This document shows, in pieces, positions 5,820 to 48,354 of a stretch of 64,000 nucleotides of DNA. How positions within the stretch are numbered: position 1 is the first letter of the stretch; each line of letters begins with the position of its first letter. The stretch is from positions 8,597 through 72,596 of the forward strand of contig MHOO01000008.1 of NCBI GenBank assembly GCA_001820095.1, read 5' to 3'. The position numbers and the translations under genes are program-made. The DNA is from Candidatus Staskawiczbacteria bacterium RIFCSPHIGHO2_01_FULL_39_25. Its GTDB lineage: Bacteria > Patescibacteriota > Minisyncoccia > Minisyncoccales > Staskawiczbacteraceae. The notes under the pieces are model-generated. The model was not told the origin of the DNA and searched no databases. It worked only from the letters and a program-made list of their open reading frames with translations.

Positions 5820-6412
5820 TTGTTGATGCTGACATATTTTATTTCATCAATGGATTTGCAGGCAAGTGGCAATGGCTGGATTGGCTGGGGATTTTTTTTG
5901 CCCAATACCTCGGCTATATATTGCTTTTTTCTTTGCTGGTATTCCTTCTGATTTACCCGATCAAATTGTCCCGAAAAGCGGGACAACGATTTGCTCTGCA
6001 AATCGTATTTGACCGGGCAGGTTTTAAAAAATATTGGCGCATGGTTGCAGAAGGAGTAGTGGCCGCGCTGTTTGTAAGGTTCGTCTTAGTAGAAATTTTT
6101 TATTGGCTACGTTTTAGAATGAGGCCGTTTGTTGATGGTAATAATAATTTGCTCATATCTTATGATATAAGCAAAACTGCTTTTCCGTCCGGTCATGCGT
6201 CATTTTATTTTGCGCTTTCTACTATTATCTATGGTTATCATAAAAAAGCTGGCATTCTATTTTTCATTGCCAGTTTTTTAATTTCTATAGGCAGGGTTTT
6301 CGTCGGCGTCCACTGGCCATCAGATATTTTAGCGGGAGCTTTGCTGGGGATCATTATGGGTTTGGTTTTAAATAAACTATTCAAAAAAATAAGCATAAAA
6401 AAATCCCAATAG
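5816..6412 (+). CDS. PAP2-family membrane phosphatase (undecaprenyl-diphosphatase-like)
   Basis: PSGHAS and GVHWPSD PAP2 motifs plus multiple hydrophobic helices. Confidence 0.7.
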   Translation: MIVDADIFYFINGFAGKWQWLDWLGIFFAQYLGYILLFSLLVFLLIYPIKLSRKAGQRFALQIVFDRAGFKKYWRMVAEGVVAALFVRFVLVEIFYWLRFRMRPFVDGNNNLLISYDISKTAFPSGHASFYFALSTIIYGYHKKAGILFFIASFLISIGRVFVGVHWPSDILAGALLGIIMGLVLNKLFKKISIKKSQ

Positions 6413-8272: not shown

Positions 8273-10307
8273 AGTCGCAGTCTTTGTTTGAGCATTTTAC
8301 TTTTTTGCTTTTTGTTTCCACTAAGATGGATTTGCATAGTGGGCAGAATTTATTGACCGGCTTATCCCATAGCGCAAAATCACATGTAGGGTAGGTGTCG
8401 CATCCGTAAAATATCTTGCCTTTCCTGGTTTTTTTAGCCCCCATGTGTCCGGTTTTACACTTTGGGCAAGTAATATCCAATTTTTCTGCCTGCATAGAAG
8501 GGTCTTTTATAATTGATTCGGTATGTTTGCATTCAGGGAAACCCGTGCATGCGTAGAATCTGCCGAACCGCCCCATTTTTTCTATCATGGGTTTTTGGCA
8601 CTTAGGGCAGATTTTGTCGGTTTTAATGTCTAGGTTTTCCTTAGGCACATCTTCATATTTTTCTTTCAGGTTTTTTGCAAACGGGCCATAGAAATCTCTA
8701 ACGGTTTTTTCCCAGGTATCTTTTCCTTCTGCAACTTCGTCTAGCTCTTTTTCCATTTTTGCGGTAAATTCAATATCTACAATTTCTGGAAAATTCTTTA
8801 CTAACATCTCGTTTACAATGACACCCATCTCGGTAGGGAAAAATCTTTTTTGCTCATTTTTTTCAATGTAATGTCTATCTTGAATAGTAGAAAGCGTAGG
8901 GGCATAGGTTGAGGGTCTGCCAATGCCGTGTTTCTCAAGCGCTTTAATCAAGCTTGCTTCATTATACCTTGGCGGGGGCTCGGTAAAATGCTGGCTGGGA
9001 TTGATGTTTACTAATTCCACAATTTCCTTTTCTTTCAATTCCGGCATTTCATTTTCAGTGAATTTCATGGGGTATACCTTCAAGAAGCCGTCAAATTTTA
9101 AAATCTGCCCGTTGGCGCCGAAGGTATATTCGTTGGCATTAATTTCAACCGAAGTTGCGTTAAAAACCGCAGAAACCATTTGGCTGGCAATGAACCGCTG
9201 CCATATTAACGTGTACAATTTCAGCTTTGCGGCATCTAAGTTGTTTTTTAATAATTCGGGAGCTTGTTGGGCATAGGTTGGGCGGATGGCCTCGTGGGCT
9301 TCTTGCGCTCCCTTGCCTGCCTTGTACCGTTTTATTTGAGCATAATTTTTTCCAAATGAATCTGTGATGAATTTTTCAGCGTCTGCCAGTGATTGTTGTG
9401 ATAAATTTAATGAATCGGTCCTATGATAGGTGATATGCCCCTCTTCATATAACTTTTGCGCCACTGACATGGTCATTTTTGCGGAATACCCGAATTTATT
9501 GGCTGCGGTCTGCTGAAGCGTGCTGGTAGTAAATGGCGGCAAAGGGTTTTTCCTAGTTTCTTTTTTTTCTACACTCGCTATGTTATATTCTGCCTGTTCT
9601 AAATTTTTTAAAATAGCATCGGCTTCCTCTTTATTTTTAATTGCTAATTTATCAATCGTTTTGCCGTCTTTCTTAATTAAATTTGCTTGAAAGTCTTGGT
9701 TATTGTTTTTTGCTCCTTGTTTTTTCAATAAAGCCATGATTTGCCAATATTCCTGCGCCACGAATTTTTTGATTTCTTCCTCCCGTTCTACCACTAATCT
9801 AACTGCTACTGATTGTACGCGGCCGGCTGAAAGGCCCTTAGCTACCTTTTTCCATAAAAAAGGCGAAATCTTATACCCTACGATTCTATCCAAAATTCTC
9901 CTGGCTTGCTGGGCATCTACCAAACTCATATCAATTTTTCCGGGAGATTGTAACGCATGATCAATGGCTGTTTTCGTTATTTCATGGAATACAATTCTTT
10001 TTGGATTTTTTAGCCCTAAAGCTTCCGCCAAGTGCCATGAAATTGATTCTCCCTCGCGGTCTTGGTCAGTTGCCAAAATCACTTCATCGGCGGCTTTGGC
10101 GTCTTTCTTTAATTCGGCAATCACTTTTTTCGCTTTTGGCGGTATTACATATTTGGGCTCAAAGTTTTTTTCTACGTCAATTCCAAAATCCCTTTTTGGC
10201 AGATCCCTTACATGCCCAAAAGACGCAACTACCTTGTAGTTTTTTCCTAAGAATTTACTGATAGTACGGCTTTTTGTGGGTGACTCAACTATAATTAACG
10301 ACTGCAT
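8256..10307 (-). CDS. topA: DNA topoisomerase I with C-terminal zinc ribbons
   Basis: Toprim N-terminus (IVESPTK), active-site HITYHRTDS, and several CxxC..CxxC fingers. Confidence 0.95.
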   Translation of the reverse strand: MQSLIIVESPTKSRTISKFLGKNYKVVASFGHVRDLPKRDFGIDVEKNFEPKYVIPPKAKKVIAELKKDAKAADEVILATDQDREGESISWHLAEALGLKNPKRIVFHEITKTAIDHALQSPGKIDMSLVDAQQARRILDRIVGYKISPFLWKKVAKGLSAGRVQSVAVRLVVEREEEIKKFVAQEYWQIMALLKKQGAKNNNQDFQANLIKKDGKTIDKLAIKNKEEADAILKNLEQAEYNIASVEKKETRKNPLPPFTTSTLQQTAANKFGYSAKMTMSVAQKLYEEGHITYHRTDSLNLSQQSLADAEKFITDSFGKNYAQIKRYKAGKGAQEAHEAIRPTYAQQAPELLKNNLDAAKLKLYTLIWQRFIASQMVSAVFNATSVEINANEYTFGANGQILKFDGFLKVYPMKFTENEMPELKEKEIVELVNINPSQHFTEPPPRYNEASLIKALEKHGIGRPSTYAPTLSTIQDRHYIEKNEQKRFFPTEMGVIVNEMLVKNFPEIVDIEFTAKMEKELDEVAEGKDTWEKTVRDFYGPFAKNLKEKYEDVPKENLDIKTDKICPKCQKPMIEKMGRFGRFYACTGFPECKHTESIIKDPSMQAEKLDITCPKCKTGHMGAKKTRKGKIFYGCDTYPTCDFALWDKPVNKFCPLCKSILVETKSKKVKCSNKDCDYAELV

Positions 10308-10318
10308 AATTTTTATTT

Positions 10319-11356
10319 TTATTTATCCCTATCCCTTCTTTCAACAAATTTTTTCACCTCTTCATAATTCATCTCCTTTGGCCATAATAAATTTCCCTCG
10401 GCAGAATAAATGGGGATGATATGTTCGGGTTTATTTTTATAAACATCTAATATAGCTTTTTTGGCCATTACCATATACTCCTGTTTTTTAGCTTCTGCAT
10501 CTTCGCTATGGTCAATCATATAAGATACGCTATATTGTTGTTTTTCTTTTTCTGTTGCAATTCTCATGATAGCAGGAATAATAATGCCCAGAAAATACTT
10601 TGCCTTAATGCCAGAGTTTGTTACGAAACCAGTTCCGGGCGCATATGATTCTGTTTCCTGCCCACTTTTCATGGCATCTATAACTACATTAGGATCTTCG
10701 GGCGATGGAGTTACCATATATTGATTACGTTTTAGTCCAGGCGCAGCTATGGAATGAGTTCTTTGATTTTGAGCGTGTTTTAAATAGAAATCTAAATCAA
10801 CTTCTTTTAATAAGAAGGATACATCAAACATAATATTAATTCTACCTGATGAAAAGCGTCCGTAATATACTTGTGGCTTGTCTTTTCCCATTACTGGAAA
10901 GTCGTTAACTTCTTGTTCGTGTATATTTTTAGATCTGCCATTTATATTAAAATAAAGAGTGCCTTTCAATCCATTTTCAAGTATTGATTGTACTGTCTTA
11001 GATCCTTGCTCTATATCTGAAATTTGAGGAGGTAATTGCAAGCCAAATGTCGGCTCGACTCCCGAACGGGCAACTCCTGAATAGGCGAGTCCCTTTTCAT
11101 TAATATCCCGAACTTTTCCCATTATTTTTTCTATAATCTCAGGCGATAATTCTTTTTCATTTGTTTTAGTAGATTTTTCAGGGTAGGGGAATGCCTCTAA
11201 TTCTTTTCGCATTTCTTCTTCTGAAACAATTTGTTCATCAAGAGCTTTTCTCTCCGGGTCTTTGCCAAAATTAATTCCATCTGGAATCTTCTTTTCATTG
11301 ATATCCCTACCTATATTTATTTCATTTGGCACATTCTCCCGTCTTATTTCACTCAT
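10319..11356 (-). CDS. Hypothetical protein (345 aa), no recognisable motif
   Basis: Long ORF with host-like composition and a charged N-terminal third. I see no family signature. Confidence 0.5.
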   Translation of the reverse strand: MSEIRRENVPNEINIGRDINEKKIPDGINFGKDPERKALDEQIVSEEEMRKELEAFPYPEKSTKTNEKELSPEIIEKIMGKVRDINEKGLAYSGVARSGVEPTFGLQLPPQISDIEQGSKTVQSILENGLKGTLYFNINGRSKNIHEQEVNDFPVMGKDKPQVYYGRFSSGRINIMFDVSFLLKEVDLDFYLKHAQNQRTHSIAAPGLKRNQYMVTPSPEDPNVVIDAMKSGQETESYAPGTGFVTNSGIKAKYFLGIIIPAIMRIATEKEKQQYSVSYMIDHSEDAEAKKQEYMVMAKKAILDVYKNKPEHIIPIYSAEGNLLWPKEMNYEEVKKFVERRDRDK

Positions 11357-11364
11357 AAAATTAA

Positions 11365-11402
11365 AGTCTTACAAAACCTACGGCCGTAGGTTTTGTAAGA
11401 CT
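11365..11402. repeat. Family-A palindromic element, copy 2
   Basis: AGTCTTACAAAACCTACGG/CCGTAGGTTTTGTAAGACT, a perfect 19+19 palindrome. Confidence 0.9.
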
Positions 11403-11403
11403 G

Positions 11404-11931
11404 TTACATTTCTTCAATTAAAAATATTTTAACAAATTCATCTAAATTGTACATTTGTAATAATTTTTCTGTTTTATCTGAAACATCGTAAGGGGTTATC
11501 CAGACACTTTGCTGGAACATTTTATATCCCAAATTATGTAACACACTTCTTAATAGGTCTCTTGATTTTCTATATTTTTCTGGAACGTCAAAAATAAGCA
11601 TCGCCCATTTACCATCATCTCGCTTTTTCTTTCCCTCGATAATAAAGCTTGCTTTCAGCACTTTATTTAGTCCTTCCTTGGTGAGCATGACTGCCATATT
11701 GCCTTCCAAATTTTTTATTCTTATATAATTTTTCCTTTTTGCATAATTTACTAAGTTGCTAAATGCTTTTTTGTTTTTGTCTTTTCTATATTTATCAAAA
11801 ACTGGATTTTTAATGCCATGCCAGGAATTATACATAGTTGGTCTTTTAGTTAGAAAAGCCACAATATCGCCTGTTTTATCTAGGATATTGTAAAGATCCC
11901 ATAAAAATTTATCAGTAACGGGAGGCTGCAT
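11404..11931 (-). CDS. PaaX-family winged-helix protein (small, 175 aa)
   Basis: Core W-x-ML-I-FDVPE-x5-R-x-LLR-x2-L-x3-GY-x5-SVWITP matches the PaaX-type W..FDIPE..R..LR..L..GF..WI.P signature. A WH-like segment precedes it. Confidence 0.6.
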   Translation of the reverse strand: MQPPVTDKFLWDLYNILDKTGDIVAFLTKRPTMYNSWHGIKNPVFDKYRKDKNKKAFSNLVNYAKRKNYIRIKNLEGNMAVMLTKEGLNKVLKASFIIEGKKKRDDGKWAMLIFDVPEKYRKSRDLLRSVLHNLGYKMFQQSVWITPYDVSDKTEKLLQMYNLDEFVKIFLIEEM

Positions 11932-11943
11932 AGTCTTGTGATG

Positions 11944-11980
11944 GTCTTACAAAACCGACGGCCGTAGGTTTTGTAAGACT
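11944..11980. repeat. Family-A palindromic element, copy 3
   Basis: GTCTTACAAAACCGACGG/CCGTAGGTTTTGTAAGAC with one mismatch. Confidence 0.9.
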
Positions 11981-17207: not shown

Positions 17208-17299
17208 GTAATCCACGAATACCAACGAATTTTAAAACGAATACCAACGAATTAAATTCGTCGCAATTCGTAAAGCATTCGTTGCCATTAGTGGATTAG

Positions 17300-18949: not shown

Positions 18950-19030
18950 ACGACATTTAACAATTGACAATTAACAGTTGACAAAGCGAATCGTCGGATG
19001 TCAAAGGTTAAATGTCAATTGTCAATTGTT

Positions 19031-19528
19031 ATGATAAAACAACAAATTCAGCTGGATGCTAACAGTGCTTTAAAATCAGGCGACCAATTCTCTTGCGGAG
19101 TTTTGCGTATGGCTTTGTCGGCAATTAATGCCAAAGAAAAAGAAAAAAGGTATAAAGTTTCCAAGGAAGCGCCGGAATTAGAAGAAGAAGCTTTGCTAAA
19201 AAAATCAGAATTATCCGATGACGAAATTATCGGTGTTATTTCTTCTGAAATAAAAAAGAGAAAAGATGCCATTGCCTTATATGAAAAAGGCAGTCGGCAG
19301 GAATTAGCGGATAAAGAACAAAAAGAGGTTCAAATTTTGCAGAAATACCTGCCAGAACAGTTATCAGAAGAAGAATTAAAAAAGTTAATTGAAGAAAGTA
19401 TTAGTAAAACAGGCGCTCAAGAAATAAAAGACATGGGCAAGATTATGGCGGATCTGATGCCAAAAATAAAAGGAAAAGCAGATAATTCCCAGGTGAGCAG
19501 AGTAATAAAAGAACTTTTGTCTGGATAA
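19031..19528 (+). CDS. GatB/YqeY domain protein
   Basis: MIKQQIQLDANSALKSGD..LRMALSAINAKEKE..LQKYLPEQLSEEEL pattern. I chose the ATG at 19031 because the upstream part of the ORF runs through an intergenic hairpin. Confidence 0.75.
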   Translation: MIKQQIQLDANSALKSGDQFSCGVLRMALSAINAKEKEKRYKVSKEAPELEEEALLKKSELSDDEIIGVISSEIKKRKDAIALYEKGSRQELADKEQKEVQILQKYLPEQLSEEELKKLIEESISKTGAQEIKDMGKIMADLMPKIKGKADNSQVSRVIKELLSG

Positions 19529-21123: not shown

Positions 21124-21248
21124 ATCATAAACTAGAATCTTGAATCTGGTATCTGGTATCTTGAATTGAATTTTGAATTTAGAATCGGCAATTCTTTATT
21201 CTGTATTCTATTCTAGATTCAAGATACGAGATTCTAGATTCAAGCGTA

Positions 21249-22490
21249 ATGGCCAAGGGTCAAATTATTACCGGCTTAGACATTGGAACTCATACGATAA
21301 AAATCCTCGTTGCCCAAAATAATGGGTTGGGATGGGAATTTCTATCTTATTCGCAAATACCTTCCTTTGGCTTGCGAAGAGGAGCAGTGGTAAATGTTGA
21401 AGAAACGGTAAAAAATATACAATTATTGCTGTCGAGTGTTGAAAAAGACTGCGGGCGGAAAATTAATTCTGTTTTCGTGAATATTGGCGGAAGCCATCTC
21501 TATGCCACTCCCTCCGACGGATTAATTTCCGTATCGCGGGCTGACCATATTATTTCCCAAGAGGATATTGAAAGGGTGTTGCAGGCGACACGGGCAATTA
21601 ATATCCCGTTAAATGAAGAGATCCTTGATGTTTTTCCAAGGGAGTTCATTATTGATGACCAAAAGGGCATTAAACAACCCTTAGGTTTGGTGGGCGTCAG
21701 GCTGGAGGCAAAAGTTATTTTACTCTGTTATTTTCAGTCTTATTTTATCAACTTGACGCAGGCAGTGTTAAATGCAAAACTACAGATTGACGATATTATT
21801 CCTTCTTCCTTGGCTGCAGCCCAAGCGGTGCTCACTCCTCAGCAAAAAGAAATTGGAGTTGCGCTCATAGATATAGGATCTGCTACTACCAGCTTGGCGG
21901 TTTTTGAAGAGGGAGATTTGATCCACTTTGCCGTATTCCCCTTGGGGAGCGCAAACATCACTAATGATATTGCTATCGGGCTAAAAACGGAAGTTGCTGT
22001 TGCCGAAGATATTAAAAAACAGCACGGAACCTGCATTATTGCCAAGAACGATAAAGAAAAGAAAGATCAGGCAAAGAAGAAGCTGGAAGTATTTGATAAA
22101 TCGTATCCGCTTTCTTTCACCAAAAAGAACTTAGTGGATATTATAGAGCCAAGAGTTTCTGAAATTTTAGATTTAATGCAGAAAGAATTAAAAAAAATCG
22201 GCCGGAATGAATTGTTGCCGGGAGGCATTGTGTTGACGGGAGGAGGGGCGAAAATCCCCAAGATAAAAGAATTAGCTAAGGAACGGTTAAAACTTACCTG
22301 TGAAATAGGCGTTCCTAGGGGCATTAACGGGCTTGAGCCGGATCCCGCGCTGGCTACGGTCGCAGGATTGGTATTAGGTAGCGCAGATTTTTCCAATTCA
22401 CAAAAAGATGGTATATTGGGTTTGCCATTAGAGTTTATGAAAGGATGGGGCTCAAAAATGAGAAAAATGTTCAGGGTTTTTATACCCTGA
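21249..22490 (+). CDS. ftsA: Cell division protein FtsA
   Basis: Actin-fold motifs GLDIGTHTIK, DIGSATT and LTGGGAKIP. There is a C-terminal amphipathic helix, KMRKMFRVFIP. Confidence 0.9.
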   Translation: MAKGQIITGLDIGTHTIKILVAQNNGLGWEFLSYSQIPSFGLRRGAVVNVEETVKNIQLLLSSVEKDCGRKINSVFVNIGGSHLYATPSDGLISVSRADHIISQEDIERVLQATRAINIPLNEEILDVFPREFIIDDQKGIKQPLGLVGVRLEAKVILLCYFQSYFINLTQAVLNAKLQIDDIIPSSLAAAQAVLTPQQKEIGVALIDIGSATTSLAVFEEGDLIHFAVFPLGSANITNDIAIGLKTEVAVAEDIKKQHGTCIIAKNDKEKKDQAKKKLEVFDKSYPLSFTKKNLVDIIEPRVSEILDLMQKELKKIGRNELLPGGIVLTGGGAKIPKIKELAKERLKLTCEIGVPRGINGLEPDPALATVAGLVLGSADFSNSQKDGILGLPLEFMKGWGSKMRKMFRVFIP

Positions 22491-22501
22491 AAATAATTAC
22501 C

Positions 22502-23422
22502 ATGAATCCAAAAATTAAGGTGGTGGGGGTTGGGGGATCGGGGTCTAATACTATTTCGCGCATTGCGAAATTCAATGTAAGGGGAGTGGATTTAATAGCG
22601 GTTAATACCGATGCCCAGGCATTGCATTTTTGCAAAGTTCCCCAAAAGATTTTAATTGGAAAAAATATTACGAAAGGATTGGGAGCCGGTATGGATGTAT
22701 CGTTAGGAAGGCAGGCAGCTCAAGAAAGTCAAGAAGAAATAACCGAGGCATTACGAGGAGCTGATATGGTTTTTATTACTTGCGGATTAGGAGGGGGAAC
22801 GGGAAGCGGGGCCGGGCCTATTATTGCGGAATTATCCCAAAAAATGGGTATTTTAACCATAGCCGTGGTTACTACTCCTTTTTCATTTGAAGGTGAACAG
22901 AGGAAGCAAGTGGCAAAAAAAGCTATGGAAGATTTAACGGGAAAGGTGGATTCTTTATTAATAATTTCTAATGATAAGCTTCTCAAAATCATTGATGAGA
23001 AGACAACCGTTTCTAACGCTTTTGAAATTTGCGACGATACGTTAAAACAAGCGGTCCAAGGCATCACTGATTTAATTTTAGCTCCGGGAATCATCACTAT
23101 TGATTTTGCTTCAGTTATTTCTATTATGAAGAATTCCGGACAGGCGTTGTTTGGCACCGGAAAGGCTCAAGGAGCAAATCGCGCCGTTGAGGCTGCGACA
23201 AAGGCAATTAATTCCCCATTGTTAGATTTTTCCATAAAAGGCTCTAAGGGCATTTTATTTAATGCATCAGGCAATGATACAACTCTCAACGAAATACAAG
23301 AAGCTGCAAAAGTCATTACCGAGAATGCTGATCCGAGGGCGCAAATTATTTTTGGGGCGGTAAAGGATGATATGTTAAAGAAAGGGGAGTTAAAAATAAC
23401 TGTGATTGCCACAAAATTCTAG
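22502..23422 (+). CDS. ftsZ: Cell division protein FtsZ (306 aa, ends at globular core)
   Basis: GVGGSGSN, GLGGGTGSGAGP and NTDAQAL motifs. The protein ends ..ITVIATKF-stop. The start at 22502 lies after the ftsA stop. Confidence 0.95.
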   Translation: MNPKIKVVGVGGSGSNTISRIAKFNVRGVDLIAVNTDAQALHFCKVPQKILIGKNITKGLGAGMDVSLGRQAAQESQEEITEALRGADMVFITCGLGGGTGSGAGPIIAELSQKMGILTIAVVTTPFSFEGEQRKQVAKKAMEDLTGKVDSLLIISNDKLLKIIDEKTTVSNAFEICDDTLKQAVQGITDLILAPGIITIDFASVISIMKNSGQALFGTGKAQGANRAVEAATKAINSPLLDFSIKGSKGILFNASGNDTTLNEIQEAAKVITENADPRAQIIFGAVKDDMLKKGELKITVIATKF

Positions 23423-23488
23423 AAAAGTATAAATTATTAGGTATCAGGTATGCAAAATACTTAATACCAAATATGAAATACTCGTTGC

Positions 23489-25036
23489 ATGACTCCGTCT
23501 AAAGCGCTCTTTTATTTTTGCCTTTCTTTCATCATAGGAATATTTTTTGCTTCACTTATTGAAATTCCCCAGGTTATTTCTTGGGGTTTTTTGTTGACGG
23601 GAATTCTCATGATTTTTACTCCATTCGTGATTCGTGTAAATTCATCAGCCATTCGTGAAAGTTCGTTAATTACGTTCAACGGCTACCACGCCGTGGTAGC
23701 CGTTGAACGTAAGTTAATTATTGGATTTTGCATATTATTTTTAGTGGTGGGTGTTGCCAGGTTCCAAATTGCTGAATTTGCCATTGCCAATGACCAGTTA
23801 GTTAAACTAAACGATACGCCGGATAATATTGCGCTTACAGGCCGAATCATTGATGCGCCCGATATTCGGGATACATCCCAGAAATTAAAAATTAAAGTTG
23901 ATAGAACTAAGAGCATGGTGCTGGTTACCACTCAACGTTTTCCCGAATACCACTATTTAGATGAGGTAAAATTGACCGGAAAGTTGAAGAAGCCGCCCGA
24001 ATTTGAGGATTTTAATTATAGAAATTATTTATTAAAAGATGGAATCTATTCTATTATGAGTTTTCCAAAGATTGAATTAACTTCACAAGAACATCATTAC
24101 ACAGTGGTTACTTTTTTATATAGCAGGATTTTATTGCTAAAAGAAGTATTCAGAACATCAATCAGCCAAAACTTTTCTCCTCCGCAAAGCGCTCTTTTAG
24201 AGGGCATTATGCTGGGGAACACTTCTGGCATGAGCCGCGAGGTAAAAGATAAAATGTCAGCTACCGGCTTAACCCACCTTACGGCAATTTCCGGTTCTAA
24301 CATCGTAATTCTAAGCTTAATTTTACTTCATGTTTTGCTCTTTTTAGGATTTTGGCGCGGCCAGGCTTTTTATATTACCGTGGCATTCATCTGGATTTAT
24401 ATTATTATGACCGCTCTCCCTCCTTCGGGCATACGGGCTGCTATCATGGCAACTATTTTCTTATTAGGGCAAAAATTAGGAAGGCAAAATACCAATTCAA
24501 GGGTTATTGTGATAGCGGCTGCATTGATGACCGTGCAAAATCCTCTGCTTTTAATATATGATGTGGGTTTTCAGCTTTCTTTTCTGGCTTTATTGGGAAT
24601 TATACATTTAAAACCAATTACCGATGCCTTATTCATTAAAGTTAAGTATAAAGAAGCAAAGAATTTGTTAGCTATAGTTTCTATGACGCTCGCTGCCCAA
24701 ATCTATACCGCTCCTATTATTATGTATAACTTCAAGCAAATTTCTTTGGTCGCCCCTATTACCAATCTTTTAGTGATCCCGGCTATTACCTGGATAATGG
24801 TTACGGGGTTTATTGCAATTGTTTTCGGGATTTTTTCAACTACATTGGGATTCATTTTTTCTCTGCCTTGCTGGATACTGCTGACATACTTTTTAAAAAT
24901 AATGGATGTTTTTTACCAGCCGTGGTCCGTTATAGCCATGCAGAATGTTTCTTGGATTTGGGTTGCCTTTTATTATTTAATCCTCGCATGGCTGGTGTGG
25001 CTTCTTCATAAAAGACAACAGCCGAAATTTTTATAG
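23489..25036 (+). CDS. comEC: ComEC/Rec2 DNA-uptake channel (no metallo-beta-lactamase domain)
   Basis: N-terminal TMs, an OB-like DUF4131 region and a competence domain (GLTHLTAISGSNI), 515 aa in total. Confidence 0.8.
   Translation: MTPSKALFYFCLSFIIGIFFASLIEIPQVISWGFLLTGILMIFTPFVIRVNSSAIRESSLITFNGYHAVVAVERKLIIGFCILFLVVGVARFQIAEFAIANDQLVKLNDTPDNIALTGRIIDAPDIRDTSQKLKIKVDRTKSMVLVTTQRFPEYHYLDEVKLTGKLKKPPEFEDFNYRNYLLKDGIYSIMSFPKIELTSQEHHYTVVTFLYSRILLLKEVFRTSISQNFSPPQSALLEGIMLGNTSGMSREVKDKMSATGLTHLTAISGSNIVILSLILLHVLLFLGFWRGQAFYITVAFIWIYIIMTALPPSGIRAAIMATIFLLGQKLGRQNTNSRVIVIAAALMTVQNPLLLIYDVGFQLSFLALLGIIHLKPITDALFIKVKYKEAKNLLAIVSMTLAAQIYTAPIIMYNFKQISLVAPITNLLVIPAITWIMVTGFIAIVFGIFSTTLGFIFSLPCWILLTYFLKIMDVFYQPWSVIAMQNVSWIWVAFYYLILAWLVWLLHKRQQPKFL
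23670..23712. repeat. Family-B palindromic element, copy 1 (in frame inside comEC), flanked by direct repeat GTTAA
   Basis: TTACGTTCAACGGCTACCACG-c-CGTGGTAGCCGTTGAACGTAA (21+1+21). GTTAA occurs at 23665-23669 and 23713-23717. Confidence 0.9.
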
Positions 25037-25059
25037 TACTGATTTTTAGCAAAAAAAAT

Positions 25060-25081
25060 GCCGTAGGGAAAACCCTGCGGC
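25060..25081. terminator. Bidirectional terminator between comEC and the convergent GC-rich gene
   Basis: GCCGTAGGG-aaaa-CCCTGCGGC with an A8 run before and a T-rich stretch after. Confidence 0.65.
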
Positions 25082-25097
25082 TTGTTTGTTTGAATTG

Positions 25098-25559
25098 CTA
25101 CGCAATGGCAGCAAAGTACTGTGTTGGCAACGATGAAATTTCTCTGGGCATGCAGTGGTCGTTAATCCATAGGAGGATAATTTTTACCTCAAAATTCAGG
25201 CGGAATGACCTGATGATCTTTTCAACAGTTCTGCGCGCGCGCCGCAATTGTTTAATTTGGCGCTTGCGGGTAGTAGGATTTCCCGCACATTGATGATGGG
25301 CGGCAATGGCAACAATCCTAGATCCGTGGTTCTCAATCGAAGTTTTTAGCATATCGGTCACTTCTAGCATCCAGTATAAATGCCTTAAATCTTCCCGGTC
25401 AACTTTTTGCGAAAGCTTTCTGACCGGACCCTTGGCGGTTATTTTATCTACGTGCGTAAGGCCGTACTTCCTTTTCATGAACTTGCGCACAGCGCCCTGA
25501 ACGCTTCCGTCCATACAGTTAATTGCGGTTCCATATCTCCTAGTCATCGCACTGGTCAT
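25098..25559 (-). CDS. Hypothetical protein with beta-carbonic-anhydrase-like Cys/His motifs (CMDGS .. HHQCAG)
   Basis: 153 aa with a strong GAGAGGAG ribosome-binding site. It looks richer in G+C than its neighbours by eye. The spacing of C-x-D and H-x-x-C recalls beta-CA zinc ligands. This is a resemblance only. Confidence 0.4.
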   Translation of the reverse strand: MTSAMTRRYGTAINCMDGSVQGAVRKFMKRKYGLTHVDKITAKGPVRKLSQKVDREDLRHLYWMLEVTDMLKTSIENHGSRIVAIAAHHQCAGNPTTRKRQIKQLRRARRTVEKIIRSFRLNFEVKIILLWINDHCMPREISSLPTQYFAAIA

Positions 25560-25607
25560 CGGTTCTCCTCTCTACGTCTTGTAAAGGTACTGGTGGGTTT
25601 ACGTCCT

Positions 25608-25674
25608 GTTGACACCATGTCAACATCATGCTCGCCCAAGAGTTATCATATCAATAATAAGAACATCTTGTCAA
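25608..25674 (-). promoter_or_regulatory. Promoter (TTGACA-18 nt-TATGAT on minus strand) plus leader inverted repeat GTTGACA-n3-TGTCAAC
   Basis: On the minus strand, the -35 maps to plus-strand 25669-25674 and the -10 to 25645-25650. The IR lies at 25608-25624 in the roughly 85-nt leader. Confidence 0.5.
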
Positions 25675-25718
25675 TATTTTTAATAGTATCTTAATAATTG
25701 CACAGTACTTGAAAAATA

Positions 25719-27062
25719 GTGTATAATTTAATGAATACACTATTTGAATATACCGTTATTATGCTAGAAAAAGATTCTATTCATAAAAAGGCCTGGGTTG
25801 TGGCAGCGGACATGGGCTATGGCCACCAAAGAACCGCGCATCCCTTAATGGGGATTGCTTTTGGCAGAAAGATCATCAATGCCAATAACTACCAAGGCAT
25901 TACGGTAAAAGACAGGAATTTTTGGCAGATGACGAAGTCTTCTTATGAGTTTATTGCAAGATTCAGGCGCATTCCTTTTATCGGGGAAAAAATTTATTTA
26001 TTTTTTGACAGTTTCCAGAAAATCCTAGGATATTATCCCCAGCGCGATTTATCAAAATCAAATTTCGGCGGCAGGATTATTTACTATTTTATAAAACGGG
26101 GGTGGGGCAAAAACCTGGTAGCAAGGTTGCAAAGAACCCCTTTGCCGCTTATCACGACTTTTTTCACTCCTGCGTTTATGGCAGAAGAATTTGGCTACCT
26201 TAACCAGGTTTACTGCGTTATTTGCGATGCCGATATTGCGCGGGCGTGGGTGGCCTTAGATCCCAAAAAAAGCAGGATTAAGTATTTTGCCCCATGCACC
26301 TGGGCGCGGGACCGGTTAAAGCTCTACGGGGTAAAGCCGGAAAATATTATCCTTACGGGGTATCCTTTGCCAAAAGAGAATCTTGGGGGAGAAAATCTTC
26401 AAACGCTAAAAAAAGATTTATCGTATCGCCTTCTAAATCTTGATCCCAATGGCAGGTACCGCAGACTGTATGCCCCCTTAATTAAAGGATACTTTGGAGA
26501 GCTTCCTAAAATTTCCAATCATCCTTTAACGATATTATTTTCTATTGGAGGAGCTGGCGCCCAGAAAGAGATAGGGGTGAAAATAGTAAACAAGCTGGCA
26601 GGTAAAATTAGAGCGGAAAAATTGAGGGTTATCATTTCGGTGGGCATGCGGGAAGAATTAAGGAAATATTTTGCTGACCATATCAAAAATTTAAAATTAG
26701 ATGGGTGGGTGCATATGCTATCTGGAAAAACGGTCACCGAATATTTTGAGAAATTTAACCAAGCGCTAAGAACCACAGATCTCTTATGGACAAAACCTTC
26801 AGAACTTTCTTTTTATGCCGCATTGGGCATACCTATCATTCTTGCCCCTTCCATGGGTTCGCAGGAAGATTTTAATAGGAAATGGCTTTTGCATGTTGGC
26901 GCCGCAGTTCCCGAAGAAGACCTTAATTATGTTGATGAATGGCTGTATGACCTGCTTTTAGCCGGAGATTTTGCGGAAATGGCTATGCAGGGATTCATTG
27001 AAATGGAAAAACTGGGAACTTATAATATTGAGCGGGAAGTAGCCAAAATAAACCATGCATAA
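25719..27062 (+). CDS. Hypothetical protein, possible GT-B-fold glycosyltransferase-like (start uncertain: GTG 25719, ATG 25731 or 25761)
   Basis: N-terminal AADMGYGHQRTAH resembles the G-x-GH motif of the MGDG-synthase/MurG-like gene at 28069. It also has a central IGGAGAQ. Confidence 0.35.
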   Translation: MYNLMNTLFEYTVIMLEKDSIHKKAWVVAADMGYGHQRTAHPLMGIAFGRKIINANNYQGITVKDRNFWQMTKSSYEFIARFRRIPFIGEKIYLFFDSFQKILGYYPQRDLSKSNFGGRIIYYFIKRGWGKNLVARLQRTPLPLITTFFTPAFMAEEFGYLNQVYCVICDADIARAWVALDPKKSRIKYFAPCTWARDRLKLYGVKPENIILTGYPLPKENLGGENLQTLKKDLSYRLLNLDPNGRYRRLYAPLIKGYFGELPKISNHPLTILFSIGGAGAQKEIGVKIVNKLAGKIRAEKLRVIISVGMREELRKYFADHIKNLKLDGWVHMLSGKTVTEYFEKFNQALRTTDLLWTKPSELSFYAALGIPIILAPSMGSQEDFNRKWLLHVGAAVPEEDLNYVDEWLYDLLLAGDFAEMAMQGFIEMEKLGTYNIEREVAKINHA

Positions 27063-28056
27063 CATTTTTAAAATGTTTTTATTAGTTTTTACTCTCATAT
27101 TTTTATTTTTTCTGTACTACTTTTTTATTGCAAAAGCTCCAAAACAGGAAAAAATAATATGGGGGGTTAACTTCTCCCAAATGCAAGCAGAGGCATTAGG
27201 GTTAGATTGGAAAAAAACCTACTTAGCTATATTAAAAGATTTGGGGGCAAAAAATATAAAACTGCTTACCCAGTGGGATTGGGTTGAGGGCAAGAGAGAT
27301 GATTTTTATTTTAACGATATTGATTGGCAGGTAGAGCAGGCAAAAATACATGGGGTTAAATTAATCTATGTGGTGGGAATGAAAACGGGCCGCTGGCCCG
27401 AATGCCATGTGCCCGAATGGGCTGGCAACCTTTCTAAAAACGACCAGCAAGAAGAATTGTTGCAATATATCACAGCAGTGGTAGAAAGATATAAAAATAG
27501 CGATACTATTGTCGCTTGGCAGGCGGAAAACGAACCCTTATTTATTTTTGGAAAATGCCCGTGGTACGACAAGAAGTTTTTAATTAAAGAAGTTGCCCTT
27601 ATAAAATCGCTTGATGCAACGCGCCCGGTTATTGTTTCAGATTCAGGCGAGCAGTCATTATGGATTACCGCCGCAAGAATTGGAGATATTGTGGGAACTA
27701 CTATGTACAGAAAAGCCTGGTTTCATATTATAGATGGGTTGGGATTTTACGGCAGTTTTCCTATTCCGCCGGTTTTCTATTGGCATAAGGCTCAAATGAT
27801 AAAATACTTATTTAATAAAGAGGTAATCAGCGTGGAGCTTCAGGCCGAACCATGGGGTTCAAAACTTATTTATGACATACCCCTTGCAGAACAGGAAAAA
27901 ACGATGGATTTTAACCAATTTAAAAAAAATATTGCTTATGCAAAAGCCACCGGCCTAAAAGAGTTCTATCTATGGGGCGCCGAATGGTGGTATTGGCTCA
28001 AAGAAACCCAAAACAAGCCTGGTATATGGAACGAAGCGAAAAAAATGTTCCAATAA
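27055..28056 (+). CDS. Membrane-anchored clan GH-A (GH5-like) glycoside hydrolase
   Basis: N-terminal TM segment, WQAENEP catalytic-acid motif, and a TIM-barrel-like pattern. Confidence 0.55.
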   Translation: MHNIFKMFLLVFTLIFLFFLYYFFIAKAPKQEKIIWGVNFSQMQAEALGLDWKKTYLAILKDLGAKNIKLLTQWDWVEGKRDDFYFNDIDWQVEQAKIHGVKLIYVVGMKTGRWPECHVPEWAGNLSKNDQQEELLQYITAVVERYKNSDTIVAWQAENEPLFIFGKCPWYDKKFLIKEVALIKSLDATRPVIVSDSGEQSLWITAARIGDIVGTTMYRKAWFHIIDGLGFYGSFPIPPVFYWHKAQMIKYLFNKEVISVELQAEPWGSKLIYDIPLAEQEKTMDFNQFKKNIAYAKATGLKEFYLWGAEWWYWLKETQNKPGIWNEAKKMFQ

Positions 28057-28068
28057 TTCAAAGTAAAT

Positions 28069-29169
28069 ATGATTTCTAAAAAGAAAAAAATCCTTATTAT
28101 TTCCATGACCGGAGGGTTCGGCCACCTGCGGGCCGGCCAAGCCCTCTTTGATTATGCAAAAGAAAATTTGCCTGATATAGAGCCCGAGCATATTGATATT
28201 GCGAGCATTAACCCTTCTCTCAAAAAATTCACCATAAAAGCGTATGATTTTATCAGTAGAAAAATTCCTTTTATCTGGGGAGGGGTATATAACCTCTTTG
28301 ACGTAAAGCCGATTGCCTCGGCCTTTAAAAAAATAGGAATGGTAAACTGGTCGCTTAAAGAGAATGTGGAAAACTACCTCTATAGCAAGAAACCCGATGG
28401 CATTATATTCACCAATGTGGTACCTCTGCCTTTTATAGCTAAAGATTGCCGCAAAATGTTTCCGAATATCAAAATGGGATTAGTGGTTACCGATTACCAT
28501 GGCCATTCTTATTATTATTTTACTTTCATTGATTATTACTTTGTCGCCAATGCCCAAGTGGCAAGCGATTTAGAGAAAGTTGGAATTGCCAAAGAGAAAA
28601 TTGTGGTTACGGGCATTCCCATAGATCCCAAGTTTTATCTAGAACATAATATTCAAGGCTTAAAATTGAAATATGGCATAAAAAATAATTTTCCGGTTGC
28701 ATTATTAATGGCATCGTTTAAAATATCAAAAAAAGACCTAATTGCCCTTGTAAAAAAACTTTTGAGCCATACGCCGGAGATTAATGTAATATTCATTGCC
28801 AATGGAAATAATGAACTTTATGAGTCTGTAAAAAATATATTTTTTGGCGCCGAAAGATTTTTAGCCGTTAAGTGGACGGATGCCATAGAAGAGTATATGA
28901 CAATATCAGACGTAGTCATAAGCAAGGCGGGCGGGTTAACCGTTTCAGAATGCGTAACTTTGAAAAAACCCATGATCATGGTAAATCCCATACCGGGCCA
29001 AGAGGAATACAATGCAGAATATGTTAAAAAAAATAACTTTGGAGTAAAGGTAGAAAAGCTAAGTGAAATTACGGAATTATTGTCTAAAATCCTTTCTGAA
29101 AAAAATAACCAACCAGAGCTTTTGCTAAAAGAAAACCCTTCTAAAAAGATATTCCAATATTTTGAGTAA
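28069..29169 (+). CDS. Diacylglycerol glycosyltransferase (MGDG synthase / UgtP-like, GT28)
   Basis: GGFGHLRAGQAL at the N-terminus and ISKAGGLTVSEC..PIPGQEEYNA at the C-terminus. Confidence 0.75.
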   Translation: MISKKKKILIISMTGGFGHLRAGQALFDYAKENLPDIEPEHIDIASINPSLKKFTIKAYDFISRKIPFIWGGVYNLFDVKPIASAFKKIGMVNWSLKENVENYLYSKKPDGIIFTNVVPLPFIAKDCRKMFPNIKMGLVVTDYHGHSYYYFTFIDYYFVANAQVASDLEKVGIAKEKIVVTGIPIDPKFYLEHNIQGLKLKYGIKNNFPVALLMASFKISKKDLIALVKKLLSHTPEINVIFIANGNNELYESVKNIFFGAERFLAVKWTDAIEEYMTISDVVISKAGGLTVSECVTLKKPMIMVNPIPGQEEYNAEYVKKNNFGVKVEKLSEITELLSKILSEKNNQPELLLKENPSKKIFQYFE

Positions 29170-29180
29170 TTTGAGGCGCA

Positions 29181-29213
29181 TTGAACGGCTACCACGCCGT
29201 GGTAGCCGTTCAA
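29181..29213. repeat. Family-B palindromic element, copy 2 (intergenic)
   Basis: TTGAACGGCTACCACG-c-CGTGGTAGCCGTTCAA. The outer stem is TTGAAC/GTTCAA, versus TTCAAC/GTTGAA in copy 1. Confidence 0.9.
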
Positions 29214-29244
29214 ATTTCAAAATTCAAATTTAAAATTCAGAAAT

Positions 29245-30537
29245 ATGTACGATTTACCGCAATTTAATTTCAATAGTTTTAAGGAAAAAGCTTCTCAAAT
29301 TTTACATAATAAAATTTTACAGGCTCTTGTTTTGGTAGCCATTATTATTATTGCAATCGGTTTTTCCGTAGGAACAATATCGGTAGATCGGGTAAAAAAA
29401 GAAGTGAATGCCCTTTTCTTAAGGATAGAAAAGAATCTGCCATTTGCCGATGAAAAAGGAGTCCAGGATGAAAAATACATTTCACATGTTTCTTATGAGC
29501 AGGCGATCATAGATTCAGTAAGGTCCGCTTCGCCTTCGGTAGTAAGTATTATTATATCCAAAAATCTTCCGGTATACGAAGAACAATTTATAAATCCATT
29601 TGAAGATTTCCCTGGGTTTGGGCCTCCTAATTTTCAAATTCCCCAGTATATTGAAAAAGGCACAAAATTACAGGAAGTAGGAGCTGGTTCTGGGTTTATT
29701 GTTTCAGAAGATGGCTTGATTTTAACCAATAAGCATGTAGTGTCGGATAAAAAGGCAGATTACACCGTTATCACCAATGATAGCCAGAAGTATTCTGCCA
29801 AAGTGTTAGCATTAGATCCGGTCCAAGACCTGGCGATTATAAAAATCCAGAGCGATAAAAAGTTTCCTGCCATAAAAATCGGCGACTCTTCGGGCATCCA
29901 GATTGGCCAGGGCGCTATTGCCATTGGAAACGCCTTGGGCCAATTCAGCAATACGGTTTCGGTGGGAGTGGTTTCCGGCCTTGGGAGAACGGTTAGCGCC
30001 TCTGACCAACTGGGGACATTTTCTGAAACGCTTGAAGGCATTATTCAAACCGATGCGGCTATTAATGCGGGAAATTCAGGGGGGCCGCTTATAAATTTAA
30101 GGGGAGAGGTAATAGGCGTTAATACGGCCATGGCGCAAGGGGCTCAATCAATTGGATTTGCCATACCCATTAATATCGCTAAAAAAGATATAGAGCAGAT
30201 CATAAAAACTAATAAGATAGTGTATCCATTTTTAGGGGTGCGGTATGTGTTAGTAGATTCAAATGTGAAAAGCAAATACAATTTGCCGGTAGATTATGGC
30301 GCACTTATTTTGGCCGGCACTGATGGAGAACCGGCCATTACGCCAGATTCGGCTGCAAAGAAAGCTGGCTTGAAAGAAGAAGATTTAATTTTAGAATTTA
30401 ATTCAGAAAAAATAACTCAAGAGAATTCAATGTCAAAAATCATTGTAAAATATAATCCGGGGGATAAGGTTATCTTAAAAGTATTGCGCGACGGCAAAGA
30501 AATAAACATAGAGGTGATTCTGGGTGAAAGAAGCTAG
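29245..30537 (+). CDS. htrA: HtrA/DegP-family serine protease with PDZ domain
   Basis: The triad context is intact: TNKHV, DLAIIKI, GNSGGPL. It has an N-terminal TM and a C-terminal PDZ-like region. Confidence 0.9.
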   Translation: MYDLPQFNFNSFKEKASQILHNKILQALVLVAIIIIAIGFSVGTISVDRVKKEVNALFLRIEKNLPFADEKGVQDEKYISHVSYEQAIIDSVRSASPSVVSIIISKNLPVYEEQFINPFEDFPGFGPPNFQIPQYIEKGTKLQEVGAGSGFIVSEDGLILTNKHVVSDKKADYTVITNDSQKYSAKVLALDPVQDLAIIKIQSDKKFPAIKIGDSSGIQIGQGAIAIGNALGQFSNTVSVGVVSGLGRTVSASDQLGTFSETLEGIIQTDAAINAGNSGGPLINLRGEVIGVNTAMAQGAQSIGFAIPINIAKKDIEQIIKTNKIVYPFLGVRYVLVDSNVKSKYNLPVDYGALILAGTDGEPAITPDSAAKKAGLKEEDLILEFNSEKITQENSMSKIIVKYNPGDKVILKVLRDGKEINIEVILGERS

Positions 30538-30561
30538 TGCTACTACTCGCTATTATAATAA

Positions 30562-30588
30562 AAAAGCAGATACTAAGTATCTGCTTTT
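30562..30588. terminator. Bidirectional terminator
   Basis: AAAAGCAGATACT-a-AGTATCTGCTTTT. Confidence 0.7.
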
Positions 30589-30591
30589 GAA

Positions 30592-30723
30592 TTAAGGAGC
30601 GTCTTTTTCTTTTTTATGTAAGTCATTTTCTGACCGATTGCTGATCCTGATTAACATATAAATAACAATGGGAATCACTATCTGTGTTAAAAGTAAAAAA
30701 GTGATCAAAAATAATAAAGTCAT
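30592..30723 (-). CDS. Unlisted small hydrophobic protein (43 aa): MTLLFLITFLLLTQIVIPIVIYMLIRISNRSENDLHKKEKDAP
   Basis: Hand translation. GAGGGGGGAA ribosome-binding site directly upstream of the ATG at 30723. One TM helix with a basic/acidic tail. The ORF ends at the terminator. Confidence 0.4.
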   Translation of the reverse strand: MTLLFLITFLLLTQIVIPIVIYMLIRISNRSENDLHKKEKDAP

Positions 30724-40288: not shown

Positions 40289-40318
40289 ACTATTATTACG
40301 ATATTAACTCTAAAAAAA

Positions 40319-40352
40319 GTACCTTGAAACAACGATCGTTGTTTCAAGGTAC
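40319..40352. terminator. Family-C perfect 34-nt palindrome; bidirectional terminator
   Basis: GTACCTTGAAACAACGA/TCGTTGTTTCAAGGTAC with A7 before and T5 after. Confidence 0.8.
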
Positions 40353-40372
40353 TTTTTGCTATAGATTATACG

Positions 40373-40939
40373 TTATAAATTAAAGTGCCTTTTTAGTCTA
40401 AGGTCATCATGTATTGTATCTGCAATAATAATATTAATAAAAGAACTTATATTAAAAAATTCACATAAAAACTGAATTTCTTTCTCGCAAGGATAAGGAC
40501 AAACCAAAACACTTTTTTGTAATTGATAAAAATTTAATTTTTGTAATTTTTGTCTTAATGCATCCCTGCCATATCTTCTTCTTTCTGGGATATCGAAGGT
40601 TATAATACGCCATTTTTTATCCCAAGTGTTTTGTTTTTTGATCTCTAGCCTTTCGATGTTAATTTCTTTAACTTTCCTTTTCCCCTTTTCTGTAATTTGA
40701 ACTAAACAATCTCCATTTTCTTTTTCCTTTAAGATAATAAAATTATTTCTTTTTAATCCCCTCAAAGATCTGGCTATTTTTTCTTCATTGATTTTATTTT
40801 TATTATATCTCTTATTTTTTATAATTGCTTTTGCTATGTTTGTTAAAAAATACGGAGACGTAGAAGCAACAATAACGATTCCGGTTAAAGCAATAGTTAA
40901 AAGAATTTCTTTAGTTATGCTATTGTATTGCCCTTTCAT
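40373..40939 (-). CDS. PaaX-family winged-helix protein, second paralogue (188 aa, N-terminal hydrophobic helix)
   Basis: W-x-K-K-W-RIITFDIPE-x5-R-DALRQKL-x3-NF-x5-SVLVCPYP matches the same signature as 11404..11931. Confidence 0.55.
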   Translation of the reverse strand: MKGQYNSITKEILLTIALTGIVIVASTSPYFLTNIAKAIIKNKRYNKNKINEEKIARSLRGLKRNNFIILKEKENGDCLVQITEKGKRKVKEINIERLEIKKQNTWDKKWRIITFDIPERRRYGRDALRQKLQKLNFYQLQKSVLVCPYPCEKEIQFLCEFFNISSFINIIIADTIHDDLRLKRHFNL

Positions 40940-46917: not shown

Positions 46918-46970
46918 TTCCTGAATGACGCCCTTGTTCGTTTGGTAAACGAACTTAAGGGAAAAACAAA

Positions 46971-47000
46971 AAACCCGCTTTCGCGGGTTTTTTGTTTTTT
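46971..47000 (+). terminator. Strong rho-independent terminator (preceded by a second hairpin at 46931-46961)
   Basis: AAACCCGC-tttc-GCGGGTTT followed by TTTGTTTTTT. Confidence 0.8.
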
Positions 47001-48295: not shown

Positions 48296-48319
48296 TAGTA
48301 TTTAGCGAAAAATGCTTTA

Positions 48320-48354
48320 AATCAAAAGCCCGCAATTTTTGCGGGCTTTTGATT
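48320..48354. terminator. Bidirectional terminator, perfect 16-bp stem
   Basis: AATCAAAAGCCCGCAA-ttt-TTGCGGGCTTTTGATT. Confidence 0.8.

Follow-up and report, generated by a model that had tools for sequence, protein, structure and literature searches.

A 43-nt perfect palindrome in frame in comEC of Candidatus Staskawiczbacteria and its relation to short palindromic repeats

The comEC locus and a two-copy palindromic repeat

The DNA analysed here is a 64,000-nt stretch (the window) of contig MHOO01000008.1 with a GC content of ~39%, from the genome of a Candidatus Staskawiczbacteria organism of the Rifle aquifer, a member of the Parcubacteria within the candidate phyla radiation (CPR). Its comEC gene (23489..25036, plus strand), which contains a 43-nt perfect palindrome in frame, encodes 515 aa with Pfam matches to Competence (8.8e-51) and DUF4131 (6.4e-14) and no beta-lactamase domain. 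By Pfam, the neighbourhood reads ftsA, ftsZ, comEC, a putative carbonic anhydrase gene, a DUF6938 gene, a glycoside hydrolase gene, an MGDG-synthase-like glycosyltransferase gene, htrA and clpB. P0001 of Candidatus Staskawiczbacteria RIFCSPLOWO2_01_FULL (GCA_001820275.1, contig MHPB01000003) matches the window ComEC at 100% identity. The 90% identity cluster of P0001 has one member, and the next ComEC is 59% identical (nearest homologues 50-59%).

The palindrome in comEC, copy 1 of what is here termed family B (23670..23712, no strand assigned), consists of two 21-nt arms that are 100% complementary about a 1-nt centre (21+1+21; TTACGTTCAACGGCTACCACG-c-CGTGGTAGCCGTTGAACGTAA). It is read in frame as TFNGYHAVVAVER(K), and the ComEC peptide across it runs ..SLI-TFNGYHAVVAVERK-LI... 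Copy 2 (29181..29213, likewise without strand) is a 33-nt perfect palindrome (16+1+16; TTGAACGGCTACCACG-c-CGTGGTAGCCGTTCAA) and is intergenic, lying 12 nt past the stop codon of the MGDG-synthase-like glycosyltransferase gene (29169) and 31 nt ahead of the htrA-like start (29245). The two copies are 5.5 kb apart and share an identical 27-nt core, beyond which copy 2 differs by a symmetric C/G swap at the 14th base on either side of the centre (left C to G, right G to C). The calculated RNA hairpins have folding energies of -39.4 kcal/mol for copy 1 (z = -8.6) and -28.6 kcal/mol for copy 2 (z = -5.7). Rereading of the sequence, together with the Pfam support for ComEC, bore out the initial annotation in its account of a perfect palindrome in comEC and of a second, intergenic copy with a compensatory double change.

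The central 21 nt occur twice in the window against 0.00 expected in shuffled sequence, and their GC content is 71% as compared to ~39% in the surroundings. The 16-nt half-site has no solo copies in the window. Both arms contain CTAC/GTAG (GGCTACC...GGTAGCC), internally and not at the 5' edge; this motif was considered as a RAYT-type signal and set aside, as its occurrences, in families A (described below) and B plus a single further palindrome, are about as many as chance predicts. Copy 1 is open only in frame 3, in either orientation, with TAG and TGA interrupting frames 1 and 2. The use of the open frame by comEC is as expected if selection merely removes disruptive insertions.

A scan of genome contigs with the core (GGCTACCACGNCGTGGTAGCC) gave one match, in a Methanomicrobiales metagenome-assembled genome (L001), and a scan of metagenome and viral contigs (GCTACCACGNCGTGGTAGC) gave seven metagenome matches, made up of six contigs of 65-74% GC and one (L018; ERZ842401, 49% GC, 2400 bp) that is identical around the match to L001. 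These outside matches were rejected as copies of family B, being coding-like chance matches, mostly in high-GC DNA. The scanned collections did not return the known JGI/NCBI source contigs, and the matches are uninformative on whether the source genome has further copies. At the protein level, the element in translation (TFNGYH[A/G]VVAVERK, repeated to 40 aa) yielded 13 word-sharing candidates, none of which scored, which shows only that there is no widespread peptide of this kind. With Rfam 15, the sole hit at threshold in the window was tRNA-Leu, the best at the palindrome site reaching 21.6 bits against a gathering threshold of 97, and blastn against phage records returned nothing. No description of such palindromes in CPR bacteria was found in the searched literature.

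The insertion site in the TM2-TM3 loop of ComEC

The orthologue P0037 (locus L002) shares the flanking loop sequence but is short of exactly 48 nt, which identifies the palindrome as an insertion. In the loop between the second and third transmembrane segments (TM2-TM3), L002 reads F-VIRVHSLSIRENSL-VIGFC where the window reads F-VIRVNSSAIRESSLI-[TFNGYHAVVAVERKLI]-IGFC. The corresponding DNA is ...GAA AAT TCG TTA GTA ATA GGG TTC TGC in L002 and ...GAA AGT TCG TTA ATT [48 nt] ATT GGA TTT TGC in the window. Copy 1 and one copy of a flanking direct repeat together account for the 48 nt and give comEC 16 extra in-frame codons; this length and the preserved frame, proposed from the window sequence, were confirmed against L002.

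The direct repeat is strictly GTTAA (23665-69 and 23713-17) and, as had also been noted earlier, becomes 8 bp, GTTAATTA, when the first three bases of the palindrome are counted. On the plus strand the left repeat is thereby 23665..23672, its last 3 nt overlapping the palindrome, and the right repeat 23713..23720. Where the window has two copies of GTTAATTA, L002 has a single GTTAGTAA, at the place of the right repeat. By our estimate from base frequencies, the chance of an 8-bp junction match is ~0.002. The repeat is also almost its own reverse complement, and with one bulged G the stem gains four pairs, which makes direct repeat and imperfect outer stem inseparable. To set this in context, flanks were surveyed at 31 perfect palindromes with arms of at least 12 nt in the window and related loci. 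None of the 30 others has a flanking repeat, the strict repeat being at most 3 nt as compared to 5 (8 with slack) at copy 1, and copy 2 likewise has none (1 nt). The 8-bp repeat is probably a real trace of how copy 1 inserted, by a staggered cut or through microhomology, but no hallmark of the family. The initial annotation had taken this footprint as an argument for true insertion. The insertion stands, since L002 is without the 48 nt; the target-site duplication does not extend beyond copy 1, there being none at the other palindromes.

An AlphaFold2 model of the window ComEC, built with 39 homologues, has a mean predicted local distance difference test score (pLDDT) of 84.5 and a predicted TM-score (pTM) of 0.81. 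It has helices at residues 28-52 and 63-100, and its sole weak internal stretch is residues 51-70 (pLDDT 49-55). By this prediction the insert belongs to the TM2-TM3 loop or borders on it, in agreement with the earlier assignment. The OB-fold (DUF4131) domain that follows TM3 is generally held to lie outside the membrane, and the TM2-TM3 loop is therefore probably cytoplasmic; the R/K-rich peptides inserted in orthologues agree with this placement.

The loop is variable in length across the family. Among 120 homologues, the distance between the invariant residues W32 and C81 is 24-26 residues in 68 and at least 28 in 48, the window ComEC having 48 residues, and control segments are invariant. 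The part of the loop upstream of the palindrome is itself an older expansion, which comparison of DNA and homologues resolves as a 21-nt tandem duplication (23630..23671, plus strand; ATTCGTGTAAATTCATCAGCC and ATTCGTGAAAGTTCGTTAATT, encoding IRVNSSA and IRESSLI) preceded by one further ATTCGTG at 23623. This duplication is common to P0037 (L002), P0004 (L020) and P0120 and missing from most homologues. Growth of the loop thus took no fewer than two steps. In a ComEC that is intact elsewhere, the loop stands out by its variable length and low model confidence.

Perfect palindromes in the window and at related loci

The palindrome in comEC is one of many in this DNA. Perfect palindromes with arms of at least 10 nt number 18 in the window as compared to 1.05 in Markov simulations, and eight of the 18 have a spacer of 0-1 nt. 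When a set of 20, which includes two imperfect copies of family A, was placed by the map of open reading frames (ORFs), the largest group, 13, fell 1-45 nt past a stop codon; a further two closely precede start codons, and five are within genes. A position shortly past a stop codon is thus the typical one for such palindromes, and copy 2 of family B shares it. Some of the window palindromes are of the ordinary bidirectional terminator type, with A-/T-tracts (46962-46999, 48320-48354, 40314-40357). A T-tract is missing from families A and B. The full self-complementarity of their centres is needless for an RNA loop and points to symmetry at the DNA level.

Two further features of the window were recorded. 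The palindrome at 40314-40357, probably a bidirectional terminator, is a 44-nt zero-spacer perfect palindrome with A5/T5 ends between convergent genes, one for a 1713-aa LTD/beta-helix protein and the other a second PaaX-like gene (40373-40939). AT-rich intergenic arrays at 17211-17283, 18952-19031 and 21139-21244, and at L027 9830-9940, carry 6-7-nt motifs every ~7-11 nt and form large imperfect inverted repeats. Their motifs are ACGAAT/ATTCGT, TTGACA/TGTCAA, TTGAAT/ATTCAA and CTTCAAY in tandem; the ATTCGTG of the comEC loop resembles one of them.

Family A (AGTCTTACAAAACCKACGG-CCGTAGG..., where the hyphen, here and below, marks a centre of symmetry without spacer) has three copies in the window. 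One of these, with one mismatch, lies in frame at 4276-4313 within tsaC (3976-4578), the gene for threonylcarbamoyl-AMP synthase, and encodes the peptide SLTNPTAVGFVRL. The closest solved homologue is gapped by 7 residues at this site, and in the tsaC orthologue of L028 the corresponding loop contains a small palindrome of another sequence. A second tsaC palindrome (4208-4242), perfect with 16-nt arms and a 3-nt spacer (16+3+16; GCCAGGCCAAAATTTT-GAA-AAAATTTTGGCCTGGC, encoding RQAKILKKFWPG), was judged by homologue comparison to have been made in place. It brings no change of length relative to homologues, its right arm encodes the conserved KFWPG motif, and its left arm (RQAKIL) departs from EQEKIL in L028 and PHLDFL in PDB 9d3h just at the bases that provide complementarity. 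Similarly, the palindrome at L022 2879-2910 perfects a native quasi-palindrome of ComEC, KIPQ..WGIL (KIPQTFVWGIL). Judged by their sequences, both bear the signature of templated (strand-switch) mutation. The L028 tsaC orthologue (5259-5876) was also seen to have an extra 'TLRLRSGQA' directly before (K)YWPG, where the window has its in-place palindrome.

DNA was examined for six ComEC orthologues, picked for their long loops. In four of the six, the TM2-TM3 loop contains an unrelated perfect palindrome, of 30 nt in L021 (CCTCAGTCCAAGCGA-TCGCTTGGACTGAGG, peptide PQSKRSLGLR), 42 nt in L022 (ATATCCCCAAAAAAGAGA-CGATCA-TCTCTTTTTTGGGGATAT, with CGATCA in the middle), 46 nt in L025 (...AATAGACGG-CCGTCTATT..., also written TGGTGTGCTTGAATAATAGACGG-CCGTC...; peptide LNNRRPSII) and 38 nt in L026. 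A second variable ComEC site (residues ~196-219) has palindromes in L002, L021 and L026, and residues 115-121 have one in L025. The in-frame palindromes at the three variable sites are located at L021 6169-6198 and 6627-6655, L022 2948-2989, L025 7412-7457 and 7568-7587, L026 1192-1229 and L002 1900-1931. Between lineages, the likeness of same-loop palindromes does not go beyond a short GC-rich centre (ACGG-CCGT, CGA-TCG) and excludes the arms. The core AGACGG-CCGTCT (peptide NRRPS) is found at differing ComEC sites in different genomes, which argues for repeated independent acquisition. This recurrence of in-frame palindromes in the ComEC loops of several lineages, as well as in tsaC, is new.

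The density of perfect palindromes with arms of at least 12 nt is 7.2 per 10 kb in the ComEC genes and 13.6 in non-coding DNA, while other long open frames do not exceed 0.47. The ComEC density, which the choice of orthologues with long loops biases upward, is ~15x that of other coding DNA at the same loci, with no evident reason and with essentially no palindromes in the neighbouring genes. Loci had been picked by a codon-register screen of the 120 homologous proteins, a screen of low power to which out-of-register palindromes are invisible. It gave 15 runs of at least 5 pairs against 7.8 in shuffled sequences, 5 against 1.2 for at least 6 pairs and 3 against 0.18 for at least 7. About 6/11 palindromes are in codon register where 1/3 is expected, a difference that is not significant.

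Other palindromes were noted at the same loci. The glycosyltransferase-htrA spacer of L021, orthologous to that which holds copy 2, has a 44-nt zero-spacer palindrome of different sequence 3 nt after the stop codon (11424-11467), and L025 has none there. At 620-639 and 955-974, L025 carries an identical 20-nt palindrome, TGTTGTAATGCATTACAACA, on either side of a conserved 72-aa gene upstream of yqeY. In L022 and L026, palindromes downstream of comEC adjoin genes for which a PaaX-like identity was entertained and then refuted by Pfam. L021 1-3095, from Parcubacteria Licking1014_1, encodes an anaerobic ribonucleotide reductase (NrdD) whose intein has a LAGLIDADG domain, according to precomputed Pfam hits.

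The two intergenic copies of family A bracket a gene (11404-11931, minus strand; 11365-11979 with the palindromes) for a conserved 175-aa PaaX_M/Cas2-like protein with a winged helix-turn-helix (wHTH), which carries the NCBI name 'Cas2'. Comparable units of gene and palindromes lie at L027 3651-4305 and 9956-10622, L028 ~9941-10565 and L029 4036-4623. A zero-spacer palindrome stands just downstream of the gene in 5/5 available members, its centre being ACGG-CCGT in four and ACGA-TCGT in the fifth (L027 3724-4257), and a matching upstream palindrome is present in 4/5. The two palindromes at a given gene are closer to each other than to those at other genes. Apart from ligA-X-ftsW, which was seen twice, the genes have different neighbourhoods. 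Such a unit may be REPtron-like, or may pair a self-regulating repressor with its operators. The PaaX_M/Cas2-like protein is the best candidate recogniser of these palindromes, without, so far, any link to family B.

These units also allow a broader proposal, which we hold to be improbable. Parcubacteria would possess an undescribed system of spacer-less perfect palindromes (centres ACGG-CCGT, CGA-TCG), with autonomous ~0.6-kb PaaX_M/Cas2-like cassettes bracketed by cognate palindromes in a REPtron-like arrangement and with solo copies spreading to gene ends and in frame into permissive protein loops, among them those of ComEC and TsaC; family B would be a solo copy whose cognate gene lies outside the window. 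Were this true, the palindrome system would be a main driver of loop-length variation in CPR proteins.

Origin of the inserted palindrome and comparison with known repeats

We favour, with some reserve, the reading in which the 43-nt palindrome represents one copy of a short repeat without spacer, comparable to repetitive extragenic palindromes (REP) and Rickettsia palindromic elements (RPE), that inserted with a duplicated or micro-homologous GTTAATTA into the TM2-TM3 loop of ComEC. The insert would be a tolerated passenger that adds 16 residues to the loop and brings no functional module, with selection filtering only frame and place. Spread presumably owes nothing to a DDE transposase of the cut-and-paste type; it may take place via the hairpin form, either through an enzyme specific for hairpins or single strands or through template switching during replication. 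If one arm is corrected against the other while the DNA is in hairpin or cruciform shape, the two would stay identical, and the symmetric C/G swap would need no selection on RNA. The same process would have acted repeatedly, as suggested by the unrelated perfect palindromes in the ComEC loops of other Parcubacteria.

Several observations weigh against this reading. Just two copies of family B are known, and no third was found in the 9.4 kb to the right of the window (2 copies in 73 kb). The empty site is known from a distant orthologue only, the nearest ComEC being 59% identical, and no empty-site allele in closer relatives is on record. No mobilising enzyme for family B was identified among the 41 window ORFs with Pfam evidence, of which 29 were scanned and 12, at the right end, have precomputed hits; three ORFs at 47075-51524 were unscanned, and ORF 51521-52273 has no Pfam hit on record. 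The choice of the six orthologues for their long loops introduces ascertainment bias. Finally, palindromes are clearly also made in situ, so that not every palindrome is an insertion.

The in-place palindromes in these genomes keep an origin in situ as the main rival to insertion of a repeat copy, although we judge it unlikely. Template switching, as snap-back or quasi-palindrome correction, would have created the palindrome where it stands, and its likeness to 29181-29213 would be due to ectopic templated copying. The palindromes at tsaC 4208-4242 and L022 2879-2910 are precedents for this; the lack of shared arms among same-loop palindromes of different lineages, whose likeness stops at the short GC-rich centres, would be in keeping with it, as would the 21-nt tandem duplication in the same loop, a slippage-type event. 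A single snap-back, however, cannot yield 48 new nt, both arms being missing from L002. The identical 27-nt core 5.5 kb away requires copying between loci, and a core of 71% GC is at odds with surroundings of ~39%. We give less credence still to a functional cis-element kept by selection, be it a protein-binding site, such as the operator of a dimeric wHTH protein, or an attenuator or terminator hairpin in the comEC RNA. Copy 1 is the top 'terminator-like' hit in 22400-30700, with a 20-bp stem followed by GTTAATTATT, and copy 2 is at a terminator or operator position, its right end overlapping the -35-like TTCAAA of a promoter-like site before htrA. Orthologues have different palindromes at the same place, PaaX-like regulator genes are flanked by cognate palindromes, and the symmetric swap keeps pairing; the calculated mRNA hairpin is very stable, and an effect on comEC expression is possible. 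Nevertheless, 68/120 ComEC homologues have a short loop with no room for a hairpin, which is thus not needed for ComEC, no Rfam family comes near threshold, and the palindromes at two other variable ComEC sites and in tsaC fit tolerance better than a conserved regulatory position.

It is doubtful, too, that the palindrome is a miniature inverted-repeat transposable element (MITE) mobilised by a DDE transposase. On that view the 21-nt arms would serve as its terminal inverted repeats, and the target-site duplication would be the 5-bp GTTAA or the 8-bp GTTAATTA. This reading draws on the exact 8-bp junction repeat, which chance would seldom produce, and on the single related GTTAGTAA in L002. 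Perfect 21-nt arms do amount to terminal inverted repeats, but trivially so, as in any palindrome. The fixed-length duplication expected at every copy is seen at copy 1 only (5/8 bp), which is alone among the 31 palindromes in having such a repeat, the 30 others, presumably young, being without. Nearly self-complementary, GTTAATTA also pairs as a stem extension. MITEs measure ~50-500 bp and have internal sequence and a parent insertion sequence (IS), whereas this element, at 33-43 nt, falls far below known sizes and has no spacer between its ends, and no transposase was found among the ORFs with Pfam evidence. With the repeat at one copy only, this size and no transposase, membership in the MITE class is not supported. 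The initial annotation had called the element MITE-like, adding that other copies without a flanking duplication would speak against it; copy 2 is such a case, the remaining palindromes likewise have no flanking repeat, and the claim is not supported as stated. An assembly or sequencing artefact, in the form of a fold-back chimera, has a negligible probability. Library artefacts can produce perfect palindromes, but no fewer than eight contigs (JGI, NCBI, ENA), assembled independently from different samples and with different assemblers, carry both copies of family B without a single base difference, which excludes an assembly artefact; copy 1 is moreover in frame, and a second copy exists.

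Among known systems, RPE are, like family B, palindromic repeats of a reduced genome that lie between genes and in frame in unrelated housekeeping genes, where they add a peptide at tolerated surface or loop positions; in R. conorii, 44 RPE integrations in genes, from ten families, have been described (PMC10969869). In-frame palindromes at tolerated sites of conserved genes are what comEC and, for family A, tsaC present. RPE, in contrast, are ~100-150 bp long, imperfect and from Rickettsiales, with a consensus encoding a conserved peptide, where family B measures 33-43 nt, is perfect, has two known copies and belongs to another phylum, with Parcubacteria as host. Bacterial MITEs (Correia, ERIC and others) share terminal inverted repeats, occasional in-frame gene fusions and flanking direct repeats (PMC10969869). 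They are, however, roughly 100-300 bp in length (MITE-type elements of roughly 100-235 bp are reported in PMC10969869) against 43 nt for copy 1, and here the duplication is at one copy only and no parent IS was found among the window ORFs with Pfam evidence.

REP and REPIN-RAYT systems resemble the present families in that short palindromes (20-40 nt), several families per genome, lie mostly outside genes near their 3' ends, and REPINs are short hairpin repeats located close to the ends of genes (PMC3116915). The small gene with family A on either side recalls RAYT genes between their REPs, a REPtron-like arrangement. REPs differ in being imperfect, with a loop, a 5' GTAG and hundreds of copies, whereas the palindromes here are spacer-less and perfect and the flanked gene is PaaX_M/Cas2-like; no RAYT, Y1 or HUH gene was found among the window ORFs with Pfam evidence. 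REPs are thought to move as single-strand hairpins without target duplication. Intrinsic (bidirectional) terminators share the position of copy 2 and of most window palindromes 1-45 nt after stop codons, and several have A-/T-tracts (46962-46999, 40314-40357). Families A and B lack the T-tract and have self-complementary centres, and copy 1 passes a simple terminator scan though it is inside an ORF, while copy 2, with the tail ATTTCAAAATT, is not called. Very small dispersed repeats (SDR) of heterocystous cyanobacteria and GC-rich palindromic clusters of yeast mitochondria are mobile repeats of tens of nt that could form hairpins, in AT-rich genomes, intergenic and occasionally genic. They are high-copy families with unrelated sequences and hosts, and no enzyme is known for either. 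By analogy, family B appears functionally closest to RPE and also resembles REP/REPIN. It fails defining features of MITEs, of RPE and, as far as testable, of REP-RAYT systems.

CPR genomes are usually described as poor in mobile DNA, and ComEC probably has a central part in the scavenging of DNA and nucleotides by CPR bacteria. The present case shows reduced CPR genomes to harbour families of very short perfect palindromes that are able to enter reading frames, and, if the favoured reading holds, much of the length variation of ComEC is traceable to palindromic DNA and not to selection on the peptide. For annotation, odd R/K/S-rich loop peptides (NRRPS, PQSKRSLGLR, TFNGYHAVVAVER) are to be understood as translated hairpins. 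The PaaX/Cas2-like genes provide testable candidates for palindrome-binding proteins, and the presence of inserted family copies beside palindromes made in place offers tractable comparative data on the origin and persistence of perfect palindromes in bacteria.

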